Shown: in pieces, positions 39,092-55,003 of the stretch
Position numbering within the stretch: the first letter of the stretch is position 1
Layout of the letters: every line of letters starts with the position of its first letter
Origin: Candidatus Bathyarchaeota archaeon
GTDB taxonomy: Archaea; Thermoproteota; Bathyarchaeia; Bathyarchaeales; Bathycorpusculaceae
Assembly (NCBI GenBank): GCA_963811105.1
Contig: CAWEPZ010000002.1
Span: 1 to 64,000 of the forward strand
Length of the DNA: 64,000 nucleotides
Reading direction: 5' to 3'
Position numbers and translations under genes: made by a program
The notes under the pieces: generated by a model
Seen by the model: only the letters and a program-made list of their open reading frames with translations
Told to the model about the DNA's origin: nothing
Database searches by the model: none

Positions 39092-39595
39092 TCACCCTTT
39101 TCTTGTTGCAATGAAAGATTCACGTTTAGCTTCATATTCTTCTAAAGTCATTACTATTTGTGCGGGAACGCCTGCGGAAACTGTACGCGCAGGAACATTT
39201 TTGGTAACCACGCTTCCGCCGCCAATAACTGCTTTTTCTCCTATTATCACATCTGGTAGTACGGTTACGCCTCCGCCGATTGCAACCCCGTCTTTGATGA
39301 TTGGCGGTGTCATGAAAGCGCTTTTTGGGTACTTGTCATTTAGAAGTGAACTGTTGGGAGCAATAAACACGTTATCGCCTAAAATGCAGCCGTTTGAGAT
39401 GGTTACATGTGCTTGTATGTTGCAGTTTTTCCCTAAAACTACATCTTTTCCAATGTCACAAAAGCTTCCTATGAGAGTGCCATCGCCAATTTTAGTGTTG
39501 TCGCCAATTACAACATAATTCCAAATGGCGACGTTTGCACCTATTTCTACGTTTATCCCAGTGATTATTCCCTGGCCTTTCTTTGCAATTAGCAT
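39092..39595 (-). CDS. Hexapeptide-repeat N-acetyltransferase (WbpD-like)
   Basis: Left-handed beta-helix repeats, LLNDKYP and GSVVTKNVP..GVPA. Confidence 0.88.
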   Translation of the reverse strand: MLIAKKGQGIITGINVEIGANVAIWNYVVIGDNTKIGDGTLIGSFCDIGKDVVLGKNCNIQAHVTISNGCILGDNVFIAPNSSLLNDKYPKSAFMTPPIIKDGVAIGGGVTVLPDVIIGEKAVIGGGSVVTKNVPARTVSAGVPAQIVMTLEEYEAKRESFIATRKG

Positions 39596-39666
39596 AGCTT
39601 TCCTTTCGGGCTCCGGATTTAAATAGTTTAACTCTAACTTGACATTCTAGTGCCGAGGCAAAAATC

Positions 39667-40539
39667 GTGACCAAAGAAACAGTTCTAATTGTCGGGTTAG
39701 GAGAGATTGGCCATACCCTTTTTGCATTATTTAAAGATGCAAAAAACAGTTTTGATGTTTATGGCTTGGATTTAGATAAAACAAAAATGCGCGAGCTTAA
39801 CCAAAACAGAAATGATTTTCCAAGCAAAATAGACACCCTACATATTTGTCTGCCTTGCAGTAACCAACAAAACTTTGCAGACATAACAATGGATTATGTG
39901 GATGATTTTAATCCAAAACTTGTAATTATCAACAGCACTGTGCCTCCAGGGACAACGATGAAAGTAGCAGAAAGAAGCAAGTGCCTTGTGGCCCATTCAC
40001 CGTCGCGTGGGGTACATAAAAGTCTCAAGCACATGGTTTGGGAAATGAAGCGTTGGACCAAATATGTTGGCGGCGCCAACCCGGAAGCGGGGCAGTCTGC
40101 TCAGACCCATTTTGAGAAGCTAAGTCTGAAAGTGAAGGTCTTGAAAACTTGTTCAGAGACAGAGTTGGCAAAGCTTTTTGAGACAACTTACCGTGCTTGG
40201 ATGATAGCTTGTTTCCAAGAGATGCATCGAATTTCCAGAGCATTCAATGCTGATTTTGATGAAACCGTTGATTTCCTTGAGGACACTCATCGGTTAAGGT
40301 TTGATAGGCCTGTCATGTTTCCAGGCGTAATTGGCGGACACTGCTTGATTCCCAACACTGAATTGTTGTTGAAAGCTTATGATTCAGAGTTTCTGCGGTT
40401 GATTTTGGAGTCCAATGAGAAACGTAAGGATGAAGTAAAAGATAAAACGGTTGAGGCAGAGGTAAAGAAAGTTGCTGCAAGAGCTGAAGCCTTAGAGAAG
40501 GATCTTACATCGCGAAAAAGTAGGAGCGAATGTGAGTGA
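39667..40539 (+). CDS. UDP-glucose/GDP-mannose dehydrogenase family, short form
   Basis: GLGEIG, STVPPGTT, ELAKLFETTYR and GGHCL motifs; lacks the C-terminal domain. Confidence 0.85.
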   Translation: MTKETVLIVGLGEIGHTLFALFKDAKNSFDVYGLDLDKTKMRELNQNRNDFPSKIDTLHICLPCSNQQNFADITMDYVDDFNPKLVIINSTVPPGTTMKVAERSKCLVAHSPSRGVHKSLKHMVWEMKRWTKYVGGANPEAGQSAQTHFEKLSLKVKVLKTCSETELAKLFETTYRAWMIACFQEMHRISRAFNADFDETVDFLEDTHRLRFDRPVMFPGVIGGHCLIPNTELLLKAYDSEFLRLILESNEKRKDEVKDKTVEAEVKKVAARAEALEKDLTSRKSRSECE

Positions 40540-40553
40540 TCAGTTTTTTCAGT

Positions 40554-40957
40554 TTACCATCCTATTGCAGTTGTTAAGTAAACTCTGCCATTTTTGTACT
40601 CATGGGTGAAAGGGAAGACTGCGCCTTTACTCCACCGAGCTACGATTGTTGAAACATTACTTATAGAAATTAATGCATAACAACAGTAAGCGTCAATGAG
40701 GTATAGTTGGTTTTGAGTTGAAAGAGATATGCGGAAAGAATTGTTGACAGCCAGATTGGCGCTTCCACTTGAGTTTATGAATTGAGCGCTGCCGAACCAG
40801 TCCTGCAGGGAAGTAAGGTAGTGACCGCCATATAGTTAGGCCACATATCTTTGCAGTAAGTTGAAAAGTAGCAGGGTATTCCGCCGATGATAGTAACGTT
40901 GCAGTTGTTGGTTAGGCAGTCTCTTAATTTGTTATCTTTTGGTACAACTCGAACCAA
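40554..40957 (-). pseudogene. Remnant of a probably secreted protein
   Basis: About 90 open codons (LYGGHYLTSLQDWFG...RVYLTTAIGW*) preceded by an out-of-frame segment (NVTIIGGIPCYF); no clean start. Confidence 0.4.
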
Positions 40958-41043
40958 GCCTCAAAAATGACTAGCGCTATAACCGGACAAGTCATCAATT
41001 GTCTGCTAGAGGTTTATGCCGGTGAGTTTTGTTTTCAATTGTT

Positions 41044-42268
41044 TCAAATTACTTTTTCAAATGCTTCTTCCATTTGTTGAGCATATTTTTCCCAAGATAA
41101 ATGTTCCTTAACGTAATTCGAAGCGTTTTTACCTATTCTCTCGCGAAGAGTCGGATTAGTTATTAGATTCTCAACTTTTTTTGCTATCTCTTCTGGCTTT
41201 CCATTTTCAACAAGCATTCCATTGACGTTATCCTGAATAATCTCCGCGACCCCACATCCTTTAGCAACTATCGCGGGCTTTGATGACGCCATTGCTTCAA
41301 CAGTGGCAAGTCCCCACGTTATTTGATGAGGAAAAAGGAATACATCACAAGCCGCGTATACTTTAGCTAAGTCTTCATCACATTTGGTATGCCAAAAAAG
41401 GACCTTATCTTTTACATCAAGCTTTTCACTAAGCTTTTTCAGCTCTACTTGTGAACCTGCGCCATCTAGGATAAGCTTAATGTTACTATGGTTTTTAGAC
41501 AAATAATATAACGCCTTTATGGAATCAGATTGTCGTTTAGGATCTAAATTGGCAACTTGGAGTAGAATAAAATCTTTTTCCAAACCATATTTCTTTCTTA
41601 CTTCCTCTCCAGAAATATTCTGAAACTTTTCGACGTCTAATCCAGTTCTCACCACGGTAGAAGGCTTATTGTAGGCGTCTCTTACCAAGTTCTCCCCAAC
41701 ACGCGATAATACAATTATTCTGTCGATGTATTTTACAGAAATTTTGTCCCATATTCCAAATAGGGGCCAATTAATTTTTTTCCTTATGCCTCTTCCTTTT
41801 CATGTAGAACCATGATGGAGGCTCATTGCACATCCATACTACTGGAACTCTTAATCTTCTTTTTGCAATAAAGGCCGCCCATTCTGTAGGCTGGTTGTGG
41901 TTATTGATTACTTCAAACCCTTTTGGTATCATTCTTCCCAAATTAAGCATAGCTGGAAGCCCAAACGTATAAAACTGATGGACCAAGATTCGTTGAAGTT
42001 GATTCCTAACATTTGTAATCTTTCCAACTTTGCCAAAAGAAGATACAGGTAAATCGTTATCATATTTAAATGGAACAAAGCGATTACGCAGCATAACGTT
42101 AATGGTTACTTGTTTCAGCAACTCAGGATAACAAATCTTTTCGTTAACCCCTGTCGTGAATATTTCCACTTCGTTTCCAAGTTTTTGGAGCTCTATAGCC
42201 AAGTTCAAAAGTTGTCTTTCTGCACCACCACGTCCCCATAATGCTGTATGAACCAATGCAATTTTCAT
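41044..42268 (-). pseudogene. GT4 glycosyltransferase split by one frameshift near 41775-41800
   Basis: Both halves align with the intact paralog 44313..45584 (GRGGAERQ, WMCNEPP, KINWP, ITWGL..EAM). Confidence 0.8.
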
Positions 42269-42342
42269 GACTGTTTCACAAGTATTGTTTTATGAGGATA
42301 GTTTAAGTTTATATATTTGTACTTTTAGTATCAACTAAGTTT

Positions 42343-43068
42343 TTGAGAGGTTTAAAAGTGAAGATTAAGACTGCAGTTATATTAGTTGGAGGCGCAGGTT
42401 TGCGCATGCGACCTTTCACCGAAGACATGCCCAAATGCATGGTTCCCCTTAAGGGGAAACCTCTAATACACTGGATAATATCATGGCTGAAAGATTACGG
42501 TTTCAAACACATCGTATTAGGTGTTGCTTACCGAAAAGAGGCAGTCATTAATTATTTAAAGGATAACTCGCAAGGTTTGAAGATAGATTTTAGCGAGCAC
42601 ACAGTTGAAGGAGAAACTGGAGAGGGCTTTCGTCTCGCAATAAGCAGGTTCGTGAAGGATGATGATTTCTTGGCGATGAATGGAGATGAAATCACTAGTT
42701 TGAACTTGGGACGTCTCGAAGAGTTACATTTGATGCATAAACCTTTGGCAACGATTTCTGTTGCGCCGATGCGTTCACCTTTCGGGATACTTGAACTTGA
42801 AGGTGATGATATTGTGTCTTTCAAGGAAAAACCTTTGGTTGAAAACATGTTCGTCAGTATTGGTGTATATATTTTCAACCGGAGAATACTTGATTATATT
42901 CCCGAGAATGGGTCCATCGAAAAAACGGTTTTTCCGTTACTTGCTGAAAAGCGAGTTTTGAAAGCGTGCGTACTCAAGCCTGAGGAGTTATGGTTAACTA
43001 TTAATAGCGTTAAGGACTTATCTGTTGCAGAAAAAGAGTTCGCTGCGTTACGGAGGTCCCAAACATGA
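42343..43068 (+). CDS. Sugar-1-phosphate nucleotidyltransferase
   Basis: ILVGGAGLRMRPFT..PK and MNGD motifs. Confidence 0.9.
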   Translation: MRGLKVKIKTAVILVGGAGLRMRPFTEDMPKCMVPLKGKPLIHWIISWLKDYGFKHIVLGVAYRKEAVINYLKDNSQGLKIDFSEHTVEGETGEGFRLAISRFVKDDDFLAMNGDEITSLNLGRLEELHLMHKPLATISVAPMRSPFGILELEGDDIVSFKEKPLVENMFVSIGVYIFNRRILDYIPENGSIEKTVFPLLAEKRVLKACVLKPEELWLTINSVKDLSVAEKEFAALRRSQT

Positions 43069-44036
43069 CTAGAGCGTTAATAACAGGAATCATGGGTTTT
43101 ATAGGAAGTCACCTAGCGAAGAAACTCGTTGAAGAGAACGTTGAAGTATATGGTCTTGTGCGAAGAGTAGCAAGTCGAAACATGGAAGTTATTCACGATT
43201 TATTGCAAGATATTACTCTAATCTCAGGCGACGTTTCTGACTACGTTTCTATTCTGAATGCGGTCAAGACAGCTAATCCTGACGTGATTTTCCATTTAGC
43301 GGCGTTGTCACCTGTCCGAGATTCGTTTGAGCGCCCTTTTGAATATCAGCAATCTAACTATATTGGAACTATGAACATTGCGCATTCTCTGCTTTCCCTT
43401 CAAGATCCGCAGACGAGAGACTTTATAGCTGCATCAACAGCCGAAGTATATGGGATACAGAAGAACGAACCCTTAAAGGAAAGCTTATCTCTGAATCCAT
43501 CCAGTCCGTATGCAGTCAGCAAAGCTGCGGCCGATCTCTATTTGCGTATGATGTTTAGTTCTTACAATTTGAATGGTACCATATTGCGGCCTACAAACTC
43601 GTACGGTAGGAAATTTGACACAAGTTTCATGGTGGAGTATACCATTACTCAGATGTTAAAGGGCCAGAAAGTGTACGTTGGCTCTCCTGATTCGATAAGA
43701 GACTACATGTACGTCGATGACCACGTGAACGGTTATATGTTATCAATGACGAATGAAAAAGCTAATGGCCAGGTTTACAACGTTGGAACAGGAATTGGCG
43801 TGAGCAACAAGGAGCTTGTAATGATGATCGCTGACAAAATAGGATTTGACAAGAAGAACCTCGTTTTTGGTTCCTATCCTCCTGGCTATCCGTACAGACC
43901 ACTAATTTCCGACCAGTCATCAATAGTTCTGGATGCCACGAAAATAAAAAAAGACTTGGGTTGGAAGCCAACGATTTCGCTAACTGAGGGAATTGACCGA
44001 GTAATCTCTTATTTTCGAAAAAGCGGAAACAAGTAG
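43065..44036 (+). CDS. NDP-sugar 4,6-dehydratase (GDP-mannose/dTDP-glucose type SDR)
   Basis: TGIMGFIG, HLAA, STAEVYG and PYAVSK motifs. Confidence 0.9.
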   Translation: MTRALITGIMGFIGSHLAKKLVEENVEVYGLVRRVASRNMEVIHDLLQDITLISGDVSDYVSILNAVKTANPDVIFHLAALSPVRDSFERPFEYQQSNYIGTMNIAHSLLSLQDPQTRDFIAASTAEVYGIQKNEPLKESLSLNPSSPYAVSKAAADLYLRMMFSSYNLNGTILRPTNSYGRKFDTSFMVEYTITQMLKGQKVYVGSPDSIRDYMYVDDHVNGYMLSMTNEKANGQVYNVGTGIGVSNKELVMMIADKIGFDKKNLVFGSYPPGYPYRPLISDQSSIVLDATKIKKDLGWKPTISLTEGIDRVISYFRKSGNK

Positions 44037-44312
44037 AGTTAAAAAGGAAAATTAGATTGATGCACAAAAAACTTGGTTGAAGCCAACTTTAGCTAATCGA
44101 AGACTGCTACACGTTTCAAAAAACGGTAGTCGAACATGAAGGTAAACTAAAGCGGTTTCTAAAAATTTTAGTGATTCAAACTGATAGTTAATTAGAAACG
44201 CCTTTATCAGCAGTTCTCGTCTTGTATTCTTCTAAATAATTCCTCAATTATTTAAAGAGACAAATTTATAAGACCAAAGTATTGCTCTAAGCTTAACTGG
44301 AATGCAGACCCT

Positions 44313-45584
44313 ATGAAAGTGGCGCTGATTCACACTCCGCTGGTAGGACGAGGTGGCGGACAAAGGCAAATCCTGAATCTAGCTTTTGAACTTCAAAGAA
44401 TCGGACATGAAGTCGAAATTTTTACAAGTGCAGTTAACAAAGAAAAATGTTACCCAGAATTGATAGAAAAACTCACGATAAACGTTATTTCGCATCCATT
44501 AGGAAATGAGATGCCCAAATGGTTTATTCCTTCTGAGATCCAGCAAAAAGCGAACTATACTGAACCTGCAGAATCCTCTTCTTTACGGAGTTGGATGCGA
44601 AAAGCCATGGGACGACAATTTTACACAATTCCGTACGACTTCCCATCCATGCTTAACATAGGCAGAAAAATACCTAAAGGTTTTGACATAATCAATAACC
44701 ATAATTTTCCATCTGAATGGGCAGCTTTTTTCGCGAAAAAAAGACTAAATGCCCCAGTTGTTTGGATGTGTAATGAACCGCCAGATTGGTTTTTCGCTTC
44801 CGAATCTCGAAAAGGCTTGCGCAAAATTAATTGGCCAATTTATGAAATGCTGGACAAAACGGTCTCAAAGTACATCGATGAGATTTTAGTTCTATCGAAA
44901 ATTGCTCAGGGGCATGTAGATAAAGCTTACCACAGATCATCGAGGATTGTGAGAAGTGGTGTAGATGTTGAACTTTTTCATAACGCTTCAGGAACCGATA
45001 TCAGAGAGAAATACGGACTGGGTAAAGACTTTGTTTTGCTACAGGTCGGGAATTTTCAACTCAGTAAGGGGCAAACTGATTCCATAAGGACACTTTATCA
45101 TCTTTCTAAGAATTATGATCAAATCAAGCTGATACTTGACGGTGGCGGTCGAAAAGAAGAGTTAGTAAGATTAAGCGAAAGACTTGGGGTAAGAAACAAA
45201 GTGTTATTTCTACACAGTAACGATGACGAAGAGCTCGCAAAGGTTTACGCTGCTTGTGACGTTTTTCTTTTTCCACAACAAATAACCTGGGGTTTAGCGT
45301 TGATCGAGGCAATGTCTGCTTCAAAACCTGTTATAGTCTCCAATAAATGTGGAGGTTCAGAAATTATTCAATCCAACGTGAATGGTATAGTTTTTGACCA
45401 AGCAAAACCAGAAGAGATAACAAAACAAGTAGAACTGTTAATTAACAATACCCACTTACGCAAAAAACTTGGGGAACATGCCTATGAATATGTTAAAAGC
45501 AATCTATCATGGGAAAAATACGCGAGGACGATGGAAACAATCTTTGAAGAGGCCCTCTTGAACTTTAACAAAAAGAAGCGATAA
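44313..45584 (+). CDS. GT4 glycosyltransferase
   Basis: GGGQR, KG, WGLALIEAM; GT-B layout. Confidence 0.92.
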   Translation: MKVALIHTPLVGRGGGQRQILNLAFELQRIGHEVEIFTSAVNKEKCYPELIEKLTINVISHPLGNEMPKWFIPSEIQQKANYTEPAESSSLRSWMRKAMGRQFYTIPYDFPSMLNIGRKIPKGFDIINNHNFPSEWAAFFAKKRLNAPVVWMCNEPPDWFFASESRKGLRKINWPIYEMLDKTVSKYIDEILVLSKIAQGHVDKAYHRSSRIVRSGVDVELFHNASGTDIREKYGLGKDFVLLQVGNFQLSKGQTDSIRTLYHLSKNYDQIKLILDGGGRKEELVRLSERLGVRNKVLFLHSNDDEELAKVYAACDVFLFPQQITWGLALIEAMSASKPVIVSNKCGGSEIIQSNVNGIVFDQAKPEEITKQVELLINNTHLRKKLGEHAYEYVKSNLSWEKYARTMETIFEEALLNFNKKKR

Positions 45585-45700
45585 GCGACTAGCGCTATGC
45601 GACTTAATTTTTGAAATGTATTCGTTGTTGTTTTTGCCTGATTATATAAATAGCGAATCTTCTTTAGGGATAACAGTTGAAGTCATATCTTGGGAATGGC

Positions 45701-46603
45701 ATGATTGACAAAGTTGATTTAGTGATGTGGACTAAGAACGGTGCCCAAACCCTCCCTGCAGTCCTGCAACGGATAAATGAAGTAATTCCTCAAGAATTTG
45801 TTTATAAGAAAATTGTGGTGGACGATGGAAGCAGTGACGGTACCCAGAATATCGCCTCTTCTTTTGGCTGGACGGTTATTCCAAACAAAGGCCATGGTAT
45901 AAGCAATGGTGCTAACACAGCCCTAGAAGCAGTGACATCGGACTTTTTCATAAGCTTCGAACAAGACCTATTATTAGCTCCAGAGTGGTGGCAGAAAATT
46001 CCTTCACTCGTTGAAAACTCCAACGTTGCAGTTGCATCTGGAATGCGTTTTGCAGATAAGCCAATTGGGATTAAAAAAATGCAGCAGTACGTAGCGAAGA
46101 AATATCGTGGAGAAGCAAACTTAGCTTCTTGGCTTAAGTCTAGGGATATGTCGGCTTTTACTTTAGGTAAAACATTAGACAATACGATTTACAAAGCAAA
46201 AATAATCCGACAACTCGGGGGGTTTCCAACATTGCGAGTAACCGCTGGTGTCGATACCACTTTAGCATACAAAATTAATCATGCTGGTTACAAATGGGTT
46301 GTTGATTATACTATGCAATCTGTCCATGTTAGAAAGGGGTTAAGGCAAGAACTGGATCATCAATATTGGTATGGAGCGCAATTATACGAGATTTGGAGAA
46401 AAATACTAGCGGAAACAGATATACCCCCGCCTGTAACTAGAAGTGGAGTTATCCGTCGTTTCGTTATGTCTCCATTTACTGGATTGTTTCTGGCATTCCA
46501 AACTAGGGAACCGACAGTTCTATACATTCATCCTTTAATTAGATTTTACTACATGAAAGGACTTCTACATGCTTCGAAAGTTCAAGAATCAGGTAACAGC
46601 TGA
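45701..46603 (+). CDS. GT2 glycosyltransferase
   Basis: VVDDGSSDGT and FEQD motifs. Confidence 0.85.
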   Translation: MIDKVDLVMWTKNGAQTLPAVLQRINEVIPQEFVYKKIVVDDGSSDGTQNIASSFGWTVIPNKGHGISNGANTALEAVTSDFFISFEQDLLLAPEWWQKIPSLVENSNVAVASGMRFADKPIGIKKMQQYVAKKYRGEANLASWLKSRDMSAFTLGKTLDNTIYKAKIIRQLGGFPTLRVTAGVDTTLAYKINHAGYKWVVDYTMQSVHVRKGLRQELDHQYWYGAQLYEIWRKILAETDIPPPVTRSGVIRRFVMSPFTGLFLAFQTREPTVLYIHPLIRFYYMKGLLHASKVQESGNS

Positions 46604-46680
46604 GCAATGCCTTCCCTGAATGGTTAAATTAGTAAACCCGTGTATGAAGTAAATTGTAACTGCACGGAGATTCACAGCGA

Positions 46681-48186
46681 TTGGCGAATGAGAGAGAAAT
46701 AATAAAGCTACGGTTAGATGTGGATTACCCTTATCCATCGAGGGCTAAGAGTTTTCTGTACTTAGCCTTAGGAATTAAGAAAAAAAGCAAAGATTACTTG
46801 AAGAATGCCAGAATTATAGCGAAGATGATTAATGAATCGCCAAAAGAAGTTATAGCTTACTGGTTTTTTACGCCCTACACAATTCCAGATAAAAGAACTC
46901 TCGATTTACTGAATCAAGAAAGGCATGAGGTCGCTCTGCACGTTGCAACCAATCCCTATCAAGAATGGAAAATTCTTGAAAACGTAACCGAACGAACCAT
47001 AAGATACTATACAATTCATGGAACATCACGGGTAATTGCCCAGCTATTATGGGGACGAAAGATTGGCGAAAAGCAAACGAAGATTCCCACAGATTTCCCT
47101 TTAGAATCCTTCCATGATTTTAGGACTTATAGTTTAGATGCTGGGCGTTATACGTTAGGCTTGGAGCATATGAAGACGGAATTAGAAAAATTGACTAAGG
47201 AAAATACTGTGTTAGAAGTTCATCCTGAATGGCTCTTTAATAAGGGAAAAATAAACCCGAGAGGACCATATTATGACGTTCTAAAATACTTGTTAGATGT
47301 GGACCATGACCTTGAAACTTTGCAGCTAAAAAAGAAAATATCAATCAAAATAGCTCATGATATCAAAGAATATGAAAAAGATATTGTTCCCTCAAAGGCA
47401 TTCATTGAGAAGCTGCTTGAAAGAGATATAGACATTTTTACTTTTCTGGAAAGAAAATGGTGCTGCCCAATATCTAAACCGCCAACCTCATGGATAAAAA
47501 CAGAAGACAATATTGGCTTATTGGAAATAAAGGATTATCCGACTTGGTGGAGTAGTGTTGGAAAGAAAACTCGCAATATGGTTCGCCTGGCCGGGAAAAA
47601 CGGTTTAGAAGTGATTGTAGTCCAACCGAGCGAGAAGTTCGCAGAAGGTGTCTGGAAAATTTACAATGAAACCCCAATAAGGCAAGAGCGAGCTTTCCCT
47701 CACTATGGTGAGCCGCTTGAAGCAGTCACAAGAAATGTGATTAGCGCTCAAAAATCGACATTTATCGGCGGATTTTTGCAGAAAGAGCTTGTGGGATTTA
47801 TCCAGATAGTCCATGGTGACAACATTGCTATTATTGCTCAGATACTTTCAATGCAAAAACATTGGAATAAAGCTGTAAATAACGCGCTCCTCGCAAAAGC
47901 CGTTGAAGTTTGTGCTTTCAAAGGGGAACGGTGGCTTATGTATGGGCGAATGGGAAATCACCCTTCACTTGACAAGTTTAAGGAAAGTAGTGGGTTTGCT
48001 AAATTCCCGATTACCCGTTACTATATCACTATAACAGGGAAAGGAAAAGTAGCTACTCGATTGGGATTGCATGTGGATTTTAAAGATGCTTTGCCGCATT
48101 CTATTAAGTATCCGCTTATTCCAGTTAATAATTGGATTAGTAGGAATAGGCTTCGAATTAAACGCGTTTATGAAACCAATAAATAA
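46681..48186 (+). CDS. Fusion of a polysaccharide-deacetylase-like domain and a FemAB/GNAT-like domain
   Basis: N-terminal LRLDVD, HEVALH, VHP.W; C-terminal KKTRNMVR.A.K.GL and SLDKFKES.GF. Confidence 0.55.
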   Translation: MANEREIIKLRLDVDYPYPSRAKSFLYLALGIKKKSKDYLKNARIIAKMINESPKEVIAYWFFTPYTIPDKRTLDLLNQERHEVALHVATNPYQEWKILENVTERTIRYYTIHGTSRVIAQLLWGRKIGEKQTKIPTDFPLESFHDFRTYSLDAGRYTLGLEHMKTELEKLTKENTVLEVHPEWLFNKGKINPRGPYYDVLKYLLDVDHDLETLQLKKKISIKIAHDIKEYEKDIVPSKAFIEKLLERDIDIFTFLERKWCCPISKPPTSWIKTEDNIGLLEIKDYPTWWSSVGKKTRNMVRLAGKNGLEVIVVQPSEKFAEGVWKIYNETPIRQERAFPHYGEPLEAVTRNVISAQKSTFIGGFLQKELVGFIQIVHGDNIAIIAQILSMQKHWNKAVNNALLAKAVEVCAFKGERWLMYGRMGNHPSLDKFKESSGFAKFPITRYYITITGKGKVATRLGLHVDFKDALPHSIKYPLIPVNNWISRNRLRIKRVYETNK

Positions 48187-48495
48187 TATCTTTCAAGCTT
48201 TTCTAAACTTACTATTTTACTGTAACTATTGACTTATGGAAACCCAATATTTTCATTAAAAAGTATTTTGAAATAACTTTAAATCAAGGTATGGCTTATT
48301 GAACCTTAATAATTGTACCCGAGAGACTGAGTGTTAACTTAAATGGGAATGGGGGACTTCCACTTACTGAAATTGAAACGGTTGTTCATGGCGATTCAAA
48401 TGTTGGCTAATTACAAAAAAGCTCGCTTTATTCTAAGGGCTATGTTTGTTTCTTTTCAGACTTCTCTTGAAGTTGAAAACAAAAAAGGTTTCTTC

Positions 48496-49881
48496 ATGCA
48501 GAATCATTGGCGATTTAACAGGAAGACAAAAGGTCTGATGGTCTTTGCAATTATAACCGTTATTTTGGTCTCCATTTTTGCTTTCTTACCAAAACAAAGC
48601 GAAAGCAGAGCTATTGTAAAACAACCCAGCGGTGATTTAACCGCTTCTCCATCAGGAATCCACAGCGATATCAACAATAAAACTAGCAGCTCTAACATAC
48701 TTGCAAGTTTAACTCAAGCTATAGAAAAAGTAATTGCGCCAACTCCTGAGCCTAAGCCTCCCGGCGTGATAGCATCAGCTGAAACCATCAATAGTACTGT
48801 CTGGCTTGAAGTGGCAGCGAATGCTTGGAAATATTTCCAACCAGGTGTGGGTGTAGATCCAACAATGGGGCTTCCTTATTCAAATTCTCCAGTTTTCACT
48901 GATTGGGATTTAGGAGTTTATATTCAAGCTGTTATAGATGCGCGAAAAATAGGTTTGATAGACAATGATGGCGCTTGGGGGTTTAATGCCAGAATAGATA
49001 AGGTTCTAACATTTTTGGAAACGCGAAAGCTTAATGTCACAACTAACTATCCTTACTGGTTCTACCAAGCAACGGACGGAGAAGACTATCATGAGCTGTC
49101 AGATTTGGCTACCACCCCTTATGATGGCGTTGACACTGGACGATTATTTGTTGCTCTTAATAATGTTAGAGTTTATAATTCCAGTTGGGCATTGCGTATA
49201 AATAATTTCGTTTACAACGTTTATGGTAACAGATCCAATTATGACGCTATCATACCTAATATTAAGAGTGATACCCTTACCTCAACCGATATTTATGCTT
49301 ACTATATCTACAGTGGGTTTGCTAGTTTTTGGCCTAGTAACCTTACTAATGTTCAAAGTACAATTCTTAATAATATTTTTTCAGCTGGTAATGTTTCAAC
49401 TCCTGAAGGTGTTTTGTTGCCTAAGGCTGGATTAATAGGTGATCCACTGTTTTGCTCAGTTTTTGAACTTAATAGTACAGATTCTAGATTGATGACTTTA
49501 GCTTATCAAGTTTATTTGGCTCATGAGGCATATTATAATGACACAGAACAATATCGAGCTTTCAGTGAAGGCCCCTCTATGTCAGGCGGTTGGGAGTATG
49601 AATGGGTGGTTTTGCCTGATGGTCGAACTTGGACTATAGATGAACATAATTCAAATACGTCTCCCATGATTTATTCAAAAATAGCATTGAGCTTTCTTGC
49701 CATTTATAATACAACGTTCGCCAAGAACATGTCTATTTATCTTGAGAATACTCTTCCAGAGCCTTCAAGCGGATATTGTGAGGGGGTTGATGAATCTGGA
49801 CAACTACTTGAAAGGGCTGCAAGCAATACAAACAGTTTAATTTTAGATGCTGCACTCTACGCTATACAAAATAATACATAA
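48496..49881 (+). CDS. Membrane-anchored DUF3131-like (alpha/alpha)6 glycoside hydrolase-like protein
   Basis: N-terminal TM; AWKYF, GLP, TDWDLG.Y, DTGRL and NTNSLIL motifs. Confidence 0.65.
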   Translation: MQNHWRFNRKTKGLMVFAIITVILVSIFAFLPKQSESRAIVKQPSGDLTASPSGIHSDINNKTSSSNILASLTQAIEKVIAPTPEPKPPGVIASAETINSTVWLEVAANAWKYFQPGVGVDPTMGLPYSNSPVFTDWDLGVYIQAVIDARKIGLIDNDGAWGFNARIDKVLTFLETRKLNVTTNYPYWFYQATDGEDYHELSDLATTPYDGVDTGRLFVALNNVRVYNSSWALRINNFVYNVYGNRSNYDAIIPNIKSDTLTSTDIYAYYIYSGFASFWPSNLTNVQSTILNNIFSAGNVSTPEGVLLPKAGLIGDPLFCSVFELNSTDSRLMTLAYQVYLAHEAYYNDTEQYRAFSEGPSMSGGWEYEWVVLPDGRTWTIDEHNSNTSPMIYSKIALSFLAIYNTTFAKNMSIYLENTLPEPSSGYCEGVDESGQLLERAASNTNSLILDAALYAIQNNT

Positions 49882-50046
49882 AAAGTATTTAGTTGATCTT
49901 GGGTTTTCTATTGATAAAGTCTGGCGATTTTAAAGACCTTCAACTGTTGCTCTTTCCATTTTTCTCAGACTTTAGAGTATTTATTTAACTGTTGCAAATA
50001 CCATTCAAGCCTACTTATTTGACTATTAACTTCACACTTAAATGTC

Positions 50047-50973
50047 CTATAGGTCTTTTATATTATCAAAGACTTCCTCTCGTAAGTGATACCTTTTATT
50101 ACTTGAATCTGAAAGTAAGCTTTTCATAAGTTTTGGATGATCTTCCCAGTCAACTGTTCCTAGAGCGTCGGGATAGTGAAAACCCAACTCTTTTCTGCGT
50201 ATCTCGGCTGCTTTTTTCCAAAATAGTACAGGCTCATCTATATGCTTGTTGAGAATCCACATGTCTTTTCTCAGCTCCTGAAGACCAAACATTTCTGCGT
50301 GTTTCTCACACTTCTCCAAATAATCGATTGGAAAAAGAGACCAATACCTGAAAATGGGCTTAGGAAGATAAACAGCCCTCGAAAGGGAATTTACACAAGA
50401 ATTGGCATAACTCCATTCAACGCCTTTGTTAATGTACTGTCTGAGCCTTTTTGGATGCCACAACCCCTTAATCGCTTGTGAATTTGTAAATGATCCGCTT
50501 AAACCAAGCGTCCACGCGTCACCAACAGCTATAATTTCTTTTAAGTTCTTGGCAAACCTTAAACGAAAATCTTCATAGAATTTGTTGTCTTTTACAAAGT
50601 GGAAAAAAGGCAAACTGTAAGAGTAAACGTCGGGGCATATCTCGGATAATGCTTTAATAAATTCTATGCTTCTTTCATGGACAATTTCGTTTGCTTGGAT
50701 AGAAAAAATATAATCATAGCTGCATTTTGCTCTAATATTGTTAGTTACCTCTGCTATAACACTATATTTTTTGATTTTAGGCCATTCTTGTCTGAAGAGC
50801 TTAACTTTTTTGTTTAATTTTGAAATTCTTTCTACGACTTCAAAAGTGCCATCTGTTGAGTACCCTTCAGAAATTAGGAATTCATCGCATATCGGTAAAC
50901 TGGCGGCTATTGCTTCCAAGAATGGGTACCCAGTTTTCAGGACGTTTTTCAGCACCATAAAACAGGAGATCAT
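50047..50973 (-). CDS. GT2-like glycosyltransferase
   Basis: YPFLEAI..LPICDE, GYSTDGT and IQANE motifs. Confidence 0.75.
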   Translation of the reverse strand: MISCFMVLKNVLKTGYPFLEAIAASLPICDEFLISEGYSTDGTFEVVERISKLNKKVKLFRQEWPKIKKYSVIAEVTNNIRAKCSYDYIFSIQANEIVHERSIEFIKALSEICPDVYSYSLPFFHFVKDNKFYEDFRLRFAKNLKEIIAVGDAWTLGLSGSFTNSQAIKGLWHPKRLRQYINKGVEWSYANSCVNSLSRAVYLPKPIFRYWSLFPIDYLEKCEKHAEMFGLQELRKDMWILNKHIDEPVLFWKKAAEIRRKELGFHYPDALGTVDWEDHPKLMKSLLSDSSNKRYHLREEVFDNIKDL

Positions 50974-51144: not shown

Positions 51145-51414
51145 TCAAAGTAGTAGGTCGGCAAGTAAATTATTGAGTTCTTGCCTACTCTTTACGCTTC
51201 GGAAAATCGCTTTCCCACTTGTATAGAGGCGGAAGGATGTGTCTTCGAAAGTTAATTCAAAAATTATGCCTGCAATCTTATTCTTAATTTGTGCTTTTTT
51301 TAAGATGTTTGTTATGGCCTCGTCTTTCTTATCATACTTGAAAAACACTATGACGTCTTTTTCTGCTCCGCATGTTCCTTCAATTCTGGCAACATAATCT
51401 TCAACTGAAGACAT
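51145..51414 (-). CDS. Small protein with one Cys (GTCG); TBP-fold / MoeB-C-terminal-like
   Basis: ATG overlaps the sufS stop; FRLYTSGKAIFRSVKS resembles the TBP-domain strand-turn-strand. Confidence 0.6.
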   Translation of the reverse strand: MSSVEDYVARIEGTCGAEKDVIVFFKYDKKDEAITNILKKAQIKNKIAGIIFELTFEDTSFRLYTSGKAIFRSVKSRQELNNLLADLLL

Positions 51415-52646
51415 TAGAGCGTTTCAATCTCCTTAAGAACCTCAACGAAACGCTCAATTTCTTCTTTTGTGTTATAAATGTAGAAGCTTGCTCGGTCAGA
51501 GGATTGGAGCTTGAGTACTTGTTGGTGGAGAGGCTGTGCACAATGGTAACCACTGCGTATCATTATACCGTAGTTATCGCAAATGAGTGCAACATCGTGT
51601 GATGACAAGCCTTTAAAAGTGAAGGGTACTATGCCGCATTTTTTAGAGAGGTCACTTGGTCCATAAAGGATTATATTGCTGCATTCCTGCATCCGCTTAA
51701 CTGCGTACATAGTTAACTCTTTTTCATGGCTGAAAACTTCTTCCATACCTAGAGCTTCAAGATACTTGACAGCTTCAGCTAAGCCAATGGCACCCTCCAT
51801 GTTAGGTGTGCCTGCTTCAAACTTCCACGGCGGCTCGTTCCACATTATGCTGCAACTTTTGCCAATGCTGAACTCAACTTCTCTAATCATTTCGCCTCCA
51901 CCTTGGAAAGGCGGCATTTCATCAAGCAGTTCTCGTCTGCAATACAGCCCCCCGATTCCTGTAGGACCCAACATTTTATGGCCCGAAAAAGCAAGAAAGT
52001 CTGCGTCTAGATCCTGAACATCGATAGCCATATGTGGCACGGATTGTGCTCCGTCAACAAGCATTAAAGCACCATTGTCATGAGCAACTTTGCCGATACG
52101 TTTAACATCATTAATTACGCCTGTAACGTTTGACACATGGCTTAAACAGGCAATCTTTGTTTTGTTGCAAAATTTGCTTTCAAAATCGTCATAATTCAAT
52201 GTGCCGTCGGCATTTACTTTAGTATATTGAATGGTGAAGCCCTTTAGTTTTGAGGTGATTTCCCAAGGAACAATGTTGCTGTGATGCTCCATTAGTGAAA
52301 CCAGAACCTCATCACCTTTGGCTAGGTTTTTTAGTCCCCAAGAATAAGCCACTAAGTTTATGGCTTCAGTTGTTCCTCTTACAAAAACCAGTTCGGAGGG
52401 ATCTTTTGCATTGACGAATTTTGCGATTTTTTCCCTTGATTTCTCATAGATGTCAGTTGCTTCAAGCGATAAGGTGTGGACTGCTCGGTGAACGTTGCCG
52501 TTGTGGTTTTCGTAAAAATCGCTTATGGCATCGATTACTTGGCGGGGTTTCTGTGTGGTTGCCGCATTGTCAAAGTAGATTAGGGGGTAGTTGTTTATTT
52601 GCCGTTTCAGTATTGGAAAGTCTTGCCTTATCGATTGTACGTCCAC
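51414..52646 (-). CDS. sufS: Cysteine desulfurase, group II (SufS)
   Basis: DNAATTQKP, EHHSN, DGAQS, SGHKMLGPTG, RSGYHCAQP and RASFY motifs. Confidence 0.95.
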   Translation of the reverse strand: MDVQSIRQDFPILKRQINNYPLIYFDNAATTQKPRQVIDAISDFYENHNGNVHRAVHTLSLEATDIYEKSREKIAKFVNAKDPSELVFVRGTTEAINLVAYSWGLKNLAKGDEVLVSLMEHHSNIVPWEITSKLKGFTIQYTKVNADGTLNYDDFESKFCNKTKIACLSHVSNVTGVINDVKRIGKVAHDNGALMLVDGAQSVPHMAIDVQDLDADFLAFSGHKMLGPTGIGGLYCRRELLDEMPPFQGGGEMIREVEFSIGKSCSIMWNEPPWKFEAGTPNMEGAIGLAEAVKYLEALGMEEVFSHEKELTMYAVKRMQECSNIILYGPSDLSKKCGIVPFTFKGLSSHDVALICDNYGIMIRSGYHCAQPLHQQVLKLQSSDRASFYIYNTKEEIERFVEVLKEIETL

Positions 52647-52648
52647 GA

Positions 52649-53167
52649 TTATTTCTCTGCCTTTTTCTCATCCTCTATCTTCAGTCTCTTAGAAAGTGTC
52701 TTCGCTAGTTCTTCTTCTTCCAGCGCCTGTTTTTCTTCGAAAGTGTGGTCTGCTGGCATCCAACTGGGTGCAGCGACACCTTTTTCCTTAAAGTACTGTC
52801 GTATTGCACGTTTCAAGGCGCCTACGGCTAGGACTCCGCAGTGGAATTTGACGCTTGGTAAGCCGCCGATTTCTTCAGTTACTTTTTTCCAAGTTATGTC
52901 AATCCAAGCTTGTTCAAGGCTTAAGCCTTTAATCATTTCAGTAACTATGCTGGATGTTGCAATGTTTGCTGCGCAGCCGTAGCTTTCAAAACTTGCCTTT
53001 TCAATGATGTCTTGAGGCGTTATTTTTAAGTAGAAGGTTATCATGTCTCCGCAAGCTGGGTTTCCTGCTACTGCTACTACGGTGGCATCATCCATTTTTC
53101 CAAGGTTTTTTGGGTTTCTAAATAAATCCATGACTTTTGGGTTGTATGGTAAAGGTATACGTGACAT
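52649..53167 (-). CDS. iscU: IscU/NifU-N Fe-S scaffold with charged C-terminal extension
   Basis: NPKNLG, GNPACGD, GCAANIA and LPSVKFHC motifs; likely ATG at 53167. Confidence 0.92.
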   Translation of the reverse strand: MSRIPLPYNPKVMDLFRNPKNLGKMDDATVVAVAGNPACGDMITFYLKITPQDIIEKASFESYGCAANIATSSIVTEMIKGLSLEQAWIDITWKKVTEEIGGLPSVKFHCGVLAVGALKRAIRQYFKEKGVAAPSWMPADHTFEEKQALEEEELAKTLSKRLKIEDEKKAEK

Positions 53168-53168
53168 A

Positions 53169-54392
53169 CTAATGCACTCCTGTTGAGCCAACTATCCCTC
53201 TTATACGATTGACAGCTGTAGGTAAAACTTCTAAAACGTAAGTTATATCCTCTTCTGTTTGATTGCGAGTGACTTTCATGAGGATACTGCCGTGTGCTTC
53301 TTCGAAAATGCGTCCGATTGCGATGAGAACGTGACTGGGTTGAAGTAGTCTGCGGCTGCATGCGCTTCCGCTGGAGACATACACTCCTGTGAGGCTGAGT
53401 TCAATGGTTAAGGCTTCGCCTTCCGCTCGTAGAATGCTGATGTTGGCGTTGTCCGGTGACCGTTTGCCCTCTTTCGGGCCGTTAAAACGTAGGTCATCTA
53501 GTTCGTCAAATATTCCGTCAACAAGCTTATCACGCAGCATACGCATTTTAGCTGTGTTTGCCTCAAAGTTTTGGAATGCAAGCTCCGAAGCCTTAGTGAA
53601 ACCAACAATTAACGGGGTGTTTTCCACCCCTGGCCAAAGCTTCTGTGTGCCAATTTGCCCTTCAAGAATGCGCTCCATGTTTATGCCATCACGCATGTAC
53701 AGTGCACCCATTCCTCGTGGACCTTGAATTTTGTAGCTGCTAACTGTGGCTAAATCAACATTTAGGTTTTGAACGTTAAATGGGATTCTACCGTAGGCGT
53801 CTGATGCATCACTGTGAAAGAGTGCTCGCGGGTTTATGTCTTTTACAATATCTACCGCTTCTTTAATAGGCTGTATTGTGCCAATCTCGTTGTTTACGGC
53901 TGAAATGCTAACAAGTATGGTTTCGTTGTCAACGGCTTCTTTGAGTTTTTCAAGGTTGATGAATCCTTCATGGTTTACTGGGATTTTTATTGTTGAGAAG
54001 CCGAATTTTTGCATCATCTCAGCCACTTGCAAGACGTTGATTGGTTCAATTTCTGATATGATGATTTTTTTGCCTTTGTTTTTCTGCGCAAAGCATGTTC
54101 CCATGATCGCTAGATTGTTAGCTTCTGTTTCTCCTGGTGTAAATGTGATTTCTTCTAAGATTTTTGCGCCTATGTCATTGCTAATTTTTTGGAAGCAGTT
54201 CATTATAACTTCGAAGGCTTCCCAGCCTGGTTTATGTGTAAGTGTTGGGTTGCCGTAGGCTCTCTTGTTAAAGTAAGGAAGCATTGCGTCAACGATTTCT
54301 TGGGGAACAATGCTTGAGTTTTCGTTGTCCAAGTAAACTTCATGTCTTATGCCTTCATGCAGTTTGAGAAGTTCCTTTACGTTTTCAACCAT
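53169..54392 (-). CDS. IscS/NifS-like (group I) protein with degenerate PLP/substrate site
   Basis: Keeps GNP, NNEIG, Lys in SSYK and SSGSAC; has EPIN, DASD, WPGV and SILM where IscS has EHKA, DATQ, RSGT and SIRF. Confidence 0.85.
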   Translation of the reverse strand: MVENVKELLKLHEGIRHEVYLDNENSSIVPQEIVDAMLPYFNKRAYGNPTLTHKPGWEAFEVIMNCFQKISNDIGAKILEEITFTPGETEANNLAIMGTCFAQKNKGKKIIISEIEPINVLQVAEMMQKFGFSTIKIPVNHEGFINLEKLKEAVDNETILVSISAVNNEIGTIQPIKEAVDIVKDINPRALFHSDASDAYGRIPFNVQNLNVDLATVSSYKIQGPRGMGALYMRDGINMERILEGQIGTQKLWPGVENTPLIVGFTKASELAFQNFEANTAKMRMLRDKLVDGIFDELDDLRFNGPKEGKRSPDNANISILRAEGEALTIELSLTGVYVSSGSACSRRLLQPSHVLIAIGRIFEEAHGSILMKVTRNQTEEDITYVLEVLPTAVNRIRGIVGSTGVH

Positions 54393-54499
54393 ATAGTATA
54401 CTACCTGTGAGAGAGATTAGATAACTCGTCACTCTGATAGTGCGACTTCAACTAAAAAAACCTAACCTAACCAGAGCATTGGCAGCCGTGGCAGAGATT

Positions 54500-55003
54500 T
54501 CAGGGACCCCCAGGGGTGTGTGGTGATATTTGCGGGTGGTCGTAGTAGAAAGGTGTTATTGTGCAGTTATCGATTTGAGAGCCAGTATGATTTAGCTTGA
54601 AGTCGAGCCCAAGCGTTATATGTCCTGTCATTCCGCCAAATTCATAATTGCTGTCCACAGCGAGTCCTTCCTTATTATAGGCTATTATGTGCAAATACGC
54701 ATTATACGCGGTGCCTCCACCTGTGTTGTTTAAGCGGCCACTAATGTGAAGTCTGTAGGGCAACAAGACTCTTTCATCTGTTGCATTCAAGCCAGCTGTA
54801 ATAATATTTGGTTTGCTACTGTCTGGGTTAGTTGTGTTAGTTGGCTGGAGAATTGGTACAGAAGAACCAGCATATTGTGATCTATCAGTTTGATGACTGC
54901 CTGTTTGTGAATTATGTTCAAAGTACATGATATAATTGTCATAAAAGAAAGAAGCGATAAGAACAGATGAACATGCAATGAGGGTGAGGCATACGCCAAT
55001 CAC
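54500..55003 (-). CDS. Accessory membrane-anchored Ig-like hypothetical protein
   Basis: N-terminal hydrophobic helix; 'ISGRLNNTGGGTAYN' beta-sandwich-like motif; last codons coincide with the CACCACAC motif. Confidence 0.6.
   Translation of the reverse strand: MIGVCLTLIACSSVLIASFFYDNYIMYFEHNSQTGSHQTDRSQYAGSSVPILQPTNTTNPDSSKPNIITAGLNATDERVLLPYRLHISGRLNNTGGGTAYNAYLHIIAYNKEGLAVDSNYEFGGMTGHITLGLDFKLNHTGSQIDNCTITPFYYDHPQISPHTPGGP

Follow-up and report, generated by a model that had tools for sequence, protein, structure and literature searches.

A stretch of 64,000 nucleotides from Candidatus Bathyarchaeota archaeon (assembly GCA_963811105.1, contig CAWEPZ010000002.1, positions 1 to 64,000; hereafter the window) contains an operon of four genes for a broken-looking relative of the cysteine desulfurase IscS (pseudo-IscS), a scaffold protein of the IscU type, SufS (a cysteine desulfurase of type II) and a small protein with a single cysteine. 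In many uncultured archaea, a broken-looking IscS which is under strong selection beside a scaffold, a small Cys protein and, often, a SufS suggests an undescribed division of labour in the building of iron-sulfur (Fe-S) cofactors. Tentatively, and at slightly less than an even chance, we favour the reading that SufS makes a persulfide, that the small protein carries it and that the Cys loop of pseudo-IscS passes the sulfur to IscU or ligates the cluster on it.

The window pseudo-IscS was aligned with E. coli IscS (RefSeq NC_000913.3). S10-A11-T12-T13 is replaced by E24-N25-S26-S27 and S73-G74-A75-T76 by P86-G87-E88-T89; single exchanges are H104>P117, Q183>D198, H205>Y220, T243>V256 and R354>L371. 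Thus, catalytic His104 and Gln183 and the carboxylate-binding Arg354 are absent (Pro117, Asp198, Leu371). Two residues after Arg354>Leu lies Ser356>Lys (K373). Retained are K206 (K221), D180 (D195) and C328 (C345, in SSGSAC). An initial annotation of this DNA had given the seven substitutions, with the Lys and the SSGSAC Cys loop kept in an intact open reading frame; all seven were correct against the E. coli sequence, and K221 and C345 are present. The roles of the catalytic His and Arg in desulfurases are described in PMC8918507. Because the E. coli mutants H104Q and Q183E are without activity (PMC9978102), the window protein has, judged by its sequence, very probably lost L-cysteine desulfurase activity. 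It stayed below every NCBIfam desulfurase cut-off (364 bits at best vs 531). Homologues are publicly annotated as cysteine desulfurase, which is probably wrong for pseudo-IscS in many Bathyarchaeia and Thermoprotei genomes. This label and the kept Lys, Asp and Cys would suit an unusual, active L-cysteine desulfurase, particularly as E. coli R354K remains active (PMC9978102) and Lys373 could partly stand in for Arg354. His104>Pro and Gln183>Asp, however, remove residues of which even milder E. coli mutants are inactive. Such an enzyme, or alternatively a decaying gene, is highly improbable. The predicted model (AlphaFold, mean confidence pLDDT 94) has the IscS fold with a long type I Cys loop, low in confidence at residues 345-348, and a family-specific N-terminal helix. 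Its template-modelling (TM) scores to NFS1, AfIscS and E. coli IscS were 0.86-0.89, with Archaeoglobus fulgidus structures among the top fold matches.

Decay was ruled out by conservation. In the best 120 of 7781 pseudo-IscS matches (88-100% identity) Glu24, Asn25, Pro86, Glu88, Pro117, Asp198, Leu371, Lys221 and Cys345 were invariant (120/120), position 220 was Tyr or Phe and position 256 Val or Ile. A wider sample was taken from a GTDB genome scan with at least 478 confirmed relatives. The 80 loci closest to a Thermoprotei member were used, a partial and biased choice that covers Desulfurococcales, Thermofilales, Sulfolobales-labelled bins, Aigarchaeota, Brockarchaeota, one Thermoplasmata bin and Bathyarchaeia. 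Compared with 32 Bathyarchaeia loci, the window gene had a median nonsynonymous difference (dN) of 0.071 at a synonymous difference of 0.63; dN/dS was ~0.05 in the 28 of 32 pairs for which dS was defined. Identity to the window was higher for pseudo-IscS than for the neighbouring Hel308 at 30/30 loci, PurB at 24/26 and AspS at 9/9; pseudo-IscS and IscU were about equally conserved (15/30 loci). The pseudo-IscS frame was intact in 34 of the 35 Bathyarchaeia loci. The aligned orthologs conserve the substitutions as well as the Cys, so the initially proposed degeneration is not strain-specific decay.

The substitutions differ in range. Ser10>Glu, Ala11>Asn, Gln183>Asp/Glu and the loss of Thr243 were found in 80/80 loci, Arg354>Leu/Met in all 76 covered ones. 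Equally general are the Schiff-base Lys221 (80/80), Asp195 (79/80) and the loop Cys345 (76/76 covered loci). His104>Pro, His205>Tyr and Ala75>Glu characterise the Bathyarchaeia (34/34); among the 46 loci not titled Bathyarchaeia His104 was kept in 44 and His205 in 42. The two His104 exceptions were a Brockarchaeota locus and L058, a locus placed within the Bathyarchaeia clade. Read from these alignments, the loss is a two-step process: Gln183, Thr243 and Arg354 went first, family-wide, and His104 and His205 later, in Bathyarchaeia and Brockarchaeota only. The substrate-site residues would have been lost before the PLP (pyridoxal phosphate)-stacking residues because the former loss is family-wide and the latter confined to these two groups. 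The non-Bathyarchaeia members, with His104 and His205 in place, may still bind PLP.

The initial annotation spoke of a dead IscS. As to desulfurase activity this is likely to hold, given the E. coli mutants; however, the pocket is not simply dead since the replacement residues are invariant. The old active site now carries E24, N25, S26, D198, W253 and K373, which a purely dead pocket should not require; like R348, each occurs in at least 93% of loci and in less than 15% of 143 other representatives. Such a set would fit a pocket remodelled for another sulfur donor that lacks an alpha-carboxylate, or for a different ligand such as a metal ion or anion, with the product going to Cys345 and IscU. 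The general retention of Lys221 and Asp195, the frequent retention of His104 and His205 outside Bathyarchaeia and the pairing of Arg354>Leu with Ser356>Lys fit as well. Yet in Bathyarchaeia this invariant set persists despite His104>Pro, His205>Tyr and Ala75>Glu, so normal PLP chemistry is unlikely to be needed for the shared function, and internal salt bridges which stabilise an empty pocket would yield the same pattern. We consider this remodelling quite unlikely.

In a 64-row tree, the 21 rows of the family formed one archaeal clade with a support of 99. Approximately unbiased (AU) tests rejected a grouping with Archaeoglobus-like degenerate proteins (p 0.025; four stand-ins, one of them, P0261, matched to 4EB5), with proteins like the PDB series 9WEP-9WG1 (p 0.007; stand-ins, one compared with solved structures) and with both (p 0.028). 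Group names had been chosen from a first tree, and the tests relied on a quick model and on stand-in sequences. An origin independent of both clades is likely rather than certain, and the independence from Archaeoglobus that had been proposed at the outset gains moderate support. Inactive IscS proteins probably arose at least three times, with a convergent loss of Arg354 and Gln183. Sister lineages of the family (proteins P0247, P0268, P0274, P0328, P0345) show degeneration of other kinds: His104>Pro, Gln183>Asn and Arg354>Ile in P0247, Gln183>Glu in others. This suggests a wider radiation of non-canonical IscS proteins.

As claimed initially, the four genes (Table 1) are coupled by gaps of 1 bp and 2 bp and then by an overlap of the SufS stop with the start of the small protein (TAATG). 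The iscU start was set at the ATG which opens a conserved MSRIPLPY; the open reading frame as listed runs on to an upstream TTG. As a four-gene unit the order is usual in Bathyarchaeia loci, where SufS was adjacent in 33/35. Elsewhere SufS is inconstant: it was adjacent in 17/45 loci and lay within 5 kb in 10 of the 19 loci that had 5 kb on both sides. The iscU gene adjoined that of pseudo-IscS in 76/80 loci, and all four misses were at contig ends.

Table 1. Features of the pseudo-IscS operon in the window.
Feature	Position	Strand	Description
Pseudo-IscS	53169..54392	-	407 aa; type I cysteine desulfurase fold
IscU/MisU-type scaffold	52649..53167	-	172 aa; PF01592 E 1e-37
SufS, type II cysteine desulfurase	51414..52646	-	410 aa, GTG start; TIGR01979
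Small single-Cys protein	51145..51414	-	89 aa, C15; probable TBP-like fold; putative persulfide carrier
Conserved upstream region	54393..54467	-	T-rich block, TTGAA, GTGACGAGTTAT, purine-rich box before ATG; read by eye

Most loci also have a gene for a small Cys protein of one of two types. A TusA-like protein with a C-x-x-x-P motif was present in 37/45 non-Bathyarchaeia loci; one of four tested matched PF01206 (E 3e-8), and HHalign gave 95% to a local TusA cluster. In Thermoprotei-type loci this gene directly follows iscU even without SufS or when pseudo-IscS is divergent. The type found in the window was present in 30/35 Bathyarchaeia loci (of the remaining five, four were at contig ends and one was frameshifted) and in one Brockarchaeota locus, there in the slot directly after iscU. 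The two types never co-occurred in any of the 80 loci. Thus, the constant module is pseudo-IscS, IscU and one small Cys protein. Because this protein is nearly constant and SufS is not, it appears to be the closer partner of pseudo-IscS and IscU.

C15, the sole Cys of the window carrier, was invariant in 120/120 homologues and 32/32 locus copies. This carrier is not a TusA: it had no PF01206 match, and HHalign gave 0.9% to the TusA-like cluster. Its predicted model (pLDDT 93) resembles the TATA-binding protein (TBP) with Z 6.0 and a root-mean-square deviation of 2.9 over 79 aligned residues, a middling score tied with unrelated folds; a Foldseek search with it returned nothing at E 0.001. Against the C-terminal domain of ThiF, HHalign gave a probability of 57-71% with E ~2-4e-5, the best of 59 decoys having E 0.01, and in alignments with ThiF-like E1 enzymes from the same loci its Cys-Gly matched that of their C-terminal domain, the two Cys coinciding. 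Judged by these comparisons, the small protein is likely, although not firmly, a stand-alone relative of the TBP-like Cys domain at the C-terminus of ThiF/MoeB E1 enzymes, for which we take CCTBP to be the name. That domain is described as TBP-like in archaeal E1 enzymes (PMC2948915). In the ESM Atlas, the small protein retrieved Bathyarchaeota clusters without a name and a single cluster that was 20% TBP. The ThiF C-terminal domain as query yielded only feature matches below 0.9, together with stand-alone structural look-alikes of 88-123 aa. Longer or fused forms amounted to three among 8000 candidates, two fusions with SufS fragments and one unrelated fusion, all apparent frameshift artefacts. 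The JGI labels 'ribonuclease HIII' and 'TBP' were rejected; they reflect the fold only.

As first stated, SufS has all motifs: it surpassed the TIGR01979 cut-off (566 vs 475 bits), and the motif residues His, Asp, Gln, His, Lys, Thr, Cys and three Arg are present. Its start codon is variable. Among 34 rows the first codon was GTG in 16, ATA in 12, CTG in 3 and out of register in 3, always after a purine-rich box; in the rows shown, ATA mostly overlaps the TAG stop of iscU as ATAG. The scarcity of ATG was noted in the window (start at 52646-52644) and in L048, L051, L054, L057, L058, L063-L066, L073, L074, L080, L071 and L078. Seeming N-terminal truncations of SufS in many loci were rejected as pseudogenes, the frames being open from ATA or CTG. 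The rarity of an ATG start may hold SufS low relative to the other operon products.

The U protein is of the scaffold type. The residues that mark an IscU/MisU scaffold (Tyr3, Cys37, Asp39, Cys63, Lys103, His105 and Cys106) were found in 75/75 sequences, including Cys39, Asp41, Cys65, Lys107, His109 and Cys110 of the window IscU. The nearest solved structures were 4EB5_C and 9WFY_D. SufU was ruled out as its identity by the TIGR01994 score (59.5 vs 92.5 bits) and the kept Lys107 and His109. This bears on whether SufS docks directly on IscU, with pseudo-IscS holding IscU afterwards as ligand, chaperone or brake and the small protein as a side branch. SufS His350 aligns with the SufU-docking His342 of B. 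subtilis SufS (5XT5_A), a residue specific to SufS proteins partnered with SufU (PMC8918507), and the His was found in 33/33 Bathyarchaeia SufS rows. With a scaffold-type U protein and the His in only 11/16 other rows, direct docking is improbable.

Several surfaces of pseudo-IscS are conserved. Those suited for IscU contact are the helix EGE(S/A)L, the Glu347 region and Arg379. Trp45 and Glu49 of E. coli IscS are needed for TusA binding (PMC2854127); in the family the former is Trp in 79/79 loci, compared with less than 15% of the 143 other representatives, and the latter Glu/Asp in 77/79. The family has lost the Arg patch that serves CyaY and IscX (PMC2854127). IscU has family-specific ends, an N-terminal RIPLPY and a C-terminal acidic tail. 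Across the family, in Bathyarchaeia as well as Thermoprotei, its residues 134-172 (52649-52770) are conserved as a P-x-W-L-P tail and then an acidic helix; the acidic tail could pair with the N-terminal helix of pseudo-IscS or with its Arg-rich Cys loop. A complex prediction with the pseudo-IscS dimer (17-401), IscU (2-132) and the small protein gave 0.01 vs a mark of 0.32; the controls were unfolded, and it was used neither way. Distance-matrix co-evolution among the operon genes was uninformative; shared descent dominated and subsets disagreed.

How might these proteins cooperate? The favoured relay describes a minimal, MIS-like unit for Fe-S assembly in which an IscS without L-cysteine desulfuration is retained because partners dock on it and its Cys loop can swing. 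SufS, by its sequence a complete enzyme, would take sulfur from cysteine. Its persulfide would be handed to the small single-Cys protein in the role which SufE or SufU has elsewhere; E. coli SufS without an acceptor is barely active (PMC11446229). The carrier would then dock on pseudo-IscS near the site of TusA in E. coli IscS and load Cys345, a transfer in the reverse direction of that from IscS to TusA in E. coli. Finally, following the Archaeoglobus precedent, Cys345 would deliver sulfur to IscU bound at its usual site, ligate the nascent [2Fe-2S] cluster for a time, or both. Where SufS is not adjacent, the carrier would receive its sulfur from an unlinked SufS or from polysulfide. In keeping with the relay, TusA, ThiF and ThiI genes recur in the neighbourhood of 8, 5 and 8 of the 80 loci.

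Several observations weigh against this relay. SufS was absent within 5 kb in 9/19 well-covered non-Bathyarchaeia loci. It is less conserved than pseudo-IscS, which had the higher identity to the window in 28/28 rows (one of them, L076, a cross-match and no SufS). The SufS frame was broken in 6/33 Bathyarchaeia loci vs 1/35 for pseudo-IscS; because the flanking genes Hel308 (3/35) and PurB (4/30) were broken too, part of this is assembly error. A pure relay leaves the invariant pocket residues E24, N25, S26, D198, W253 and K373 and the retention of Lys221 unaccounted for. Of the TusA site, Asp52, Arg55 and Arg237 are not retained, and as the window carrier is not TusA-like, this site need not be used. 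Lastly, no complementation of E. coli was obtained with iscSU of Archaeoglobus, even in the presence of sulfide (bioRxiv 10.1101/2024.03.20.586028), which leaves the function of the precedent in cells unproven.

The inconstancy of SufS would suit another arrangement. Pseudo-IscS could be a co-scaffold of the Archaeoglobus type which builds clusters together with IscU from free sulfide or polysulfide, with Cys345 as ligand only, while SufS and the small protein are merely co-regulated for other routes such as tRNA thiolation, thiamine or molybdopterin. A co-scaffold has been proposed for A. fulgidus (PMC8918507) and for IscS1 of Methanosarcina acetivorans (PMC7585200), and H2S rescues an E. coli iscS deletion via IscU (PMC13015791). 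ThiF and ThiI genes are nearby in some loci, and there is the likeness of the small protein to the C-terminal domain of E1 enzymes. Nevertheless, the TusA-like gene directly after iscU, also without SufS, ties the carrier to the scaffold unit, and in Bathyarchaeia SufS is translationally coupled. On balance, we regard the co-scaffold as unlikely. Of the division of labour proposed initially, with SufS for the persulfide and pseudo-IscS as co-scaffold or relay, the independent origin is moderately supported and the gene order is usual in Bathyarchaeia; SufS is not a constant neighbour, and we infer the split itself. A broader version, in which sulfur flows from SufS to the carrier, to the loop Cys of pseudo-IscS and to IscU as an old and widespread archaeal route with the PLP pocket rebuilt for a new ligand, is possible although doubtful. 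In this route the carrier would be TusA-like in Thermoprotei and relatives, and in Bathyarchaeia and Brockarchaeota an unrelated protein of the TBP fold would have taken its place. If true, this would be the first function for a stand-alone TBP-like Cys domain.

By eye, the T-run, TTGAA and GTGACGAGTTAT blocks upstream of the operon are shared by the 35 Bathyarchaeia loci and the window. The region is a probable promoter, operator and ribosome-binding site; an imperfect inverted repeat within it (54393-54467) is a possible operator in the window. In non-Bathyarchaeia loci, a helix-turn-helix protein with C-terminal cysteines is encoded beside the module (L004-L008, L012, L013, L021, L024, L026, L040, L077), a candidate metal- or Fe-S-sensing regulator. 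A heavy-metal P-type ATPase was noted in the flanks of 12/80 loci (L009-L011, L015, L016, L028, L032, L036, L037, L040, L043, L071) and rubrerythrin in 3/80; the module may thereby be connected with metal or oxidative stress. In the window, a gene that encodes 167 aa, hydrophobic in an N-terminal stretch and without a family match (54500-55003), lies between the helicase gene and the operon; of the loci compared, only L058 and L062 had it. On the other side, at 39092-50973, a glycosyltransferase/sugar-nucleotide cluster of variable content among loci borders the operon, with no sign of a functional link. HscAB, Fdx, IscA and SufBCD were not recognised by eye among the window reading frames or the recurring neighbours, of which no complete profile scan was made.

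We deal with a real, conserved and apparently undescribed variant of the known theme of an inactive IscS paired with IscU. No description of the pseudo-IscS family was found in the literature searched, mainly open-access; supplements on the E1 superfamily and on MIS/SMS systems may have these genes listed. What appears new is that the protein arose independently, that its residues were lost in two steps, that it ranges so widely across archaea and that two unrelated Cys carriers replace each other in a single position. The closest parallel is IscS-IscU of A. fulgidus (4EB5, 4HVK, 4R5F): an IscS fold without desulfurase activity (predicted here) is paired with IscU, and the loop Cys is kept. 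The initial annotation had set the two apart by loss of the Lys in Archaeoglobus. This was overstated since the 4EB5 chain also has Arg354>Leu, Gln183>Ala, His205>Asn and Thr243>Ser, all positions changed in pseudo-IscS as well. What differs is that Archaeoglobus has Lys>Asp and His104 kept, the window protein Lys kept and His104 lost. In addition, the excerpts available on Archaeoglobus IscS-IscU describe neither a small Cys protein nor a SufS. The sulfur source of this desulfurase-inactive pair is named as an open question (PMC8918507), and attempts at showing its function in cells failed (bioRxiv 10.1101/2024.03.20.586028). The coupled four-gene set brings a candidate sulfur source and a carrier in one reconstitutable operon and makes the question directly testable. 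A natural comparison series is at hand, with His104 kept or lost, the carrier TusA-like or TBP-like and SufS near or far.

The best sequence matches among solved structures were the IscS-like proteins of 9WEP-9WG1, with an IscU complex in 9WFY. They have variants at the positions of Ala11, Thr76, Gln183 and Arg354, and their nearest natural relatives are degenerate; as opposed to pseudo-IscS, they belong to a different clade by the AU test with stand-ins and carry different replacements. We infer an Aquifex origin of this series because the 9WFY IscU chain matches 2Z7E, the IscU of A. aeolicus (PMC13423590). A publication on these entries, which may exist, was not found in the mainly open-access literature searched. 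The relays of IscS-TusA and SufS-SufE in E. coli and SufS-SufU in B. subtilis are similar in that a single-Cys small protein stands beside a desulfurase, and the Trp45/Glu49 site and the His342 equivalent are kept; in contrast to them, the proposed direction is from the carrier to the IscS-like protein, and the fold of the window carrier is probably TBP-like and not related to that of TusA, SufE or SufU. In fold and Cys-Gly position it aligns with the C-terminal domain of ThiF/MoeB E1 enzymes; unlike this domain, it is a protein by itself in an Fe-S operon, and it lacks the C-terminal GG of a halobacterial stand-alone family. Finally, the operon was initially taken as a hybrid not matching ISC, SUF, NIF or MIS. 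It is better filed as a variant of MIS. Like MIS, e.g. IscS2-IscU2 and the Lys-less IscS1 of M. acetivorans, it pairs an IscS-like with a single-domain IscU-like protein, with no chaperone genes recognised alongside (PMC13066941, PMC7585200); this layout of adjacent genes was found in 76/80 loci. It departs from MIS as defined in PMC13066941 and PMC12442378, i.e. an active MisS desulfurase and MisU with no extra components: by sequence the IscS-like protein is apparently inactive here, and the unit also has a SufS of type II and a small Cys protein.

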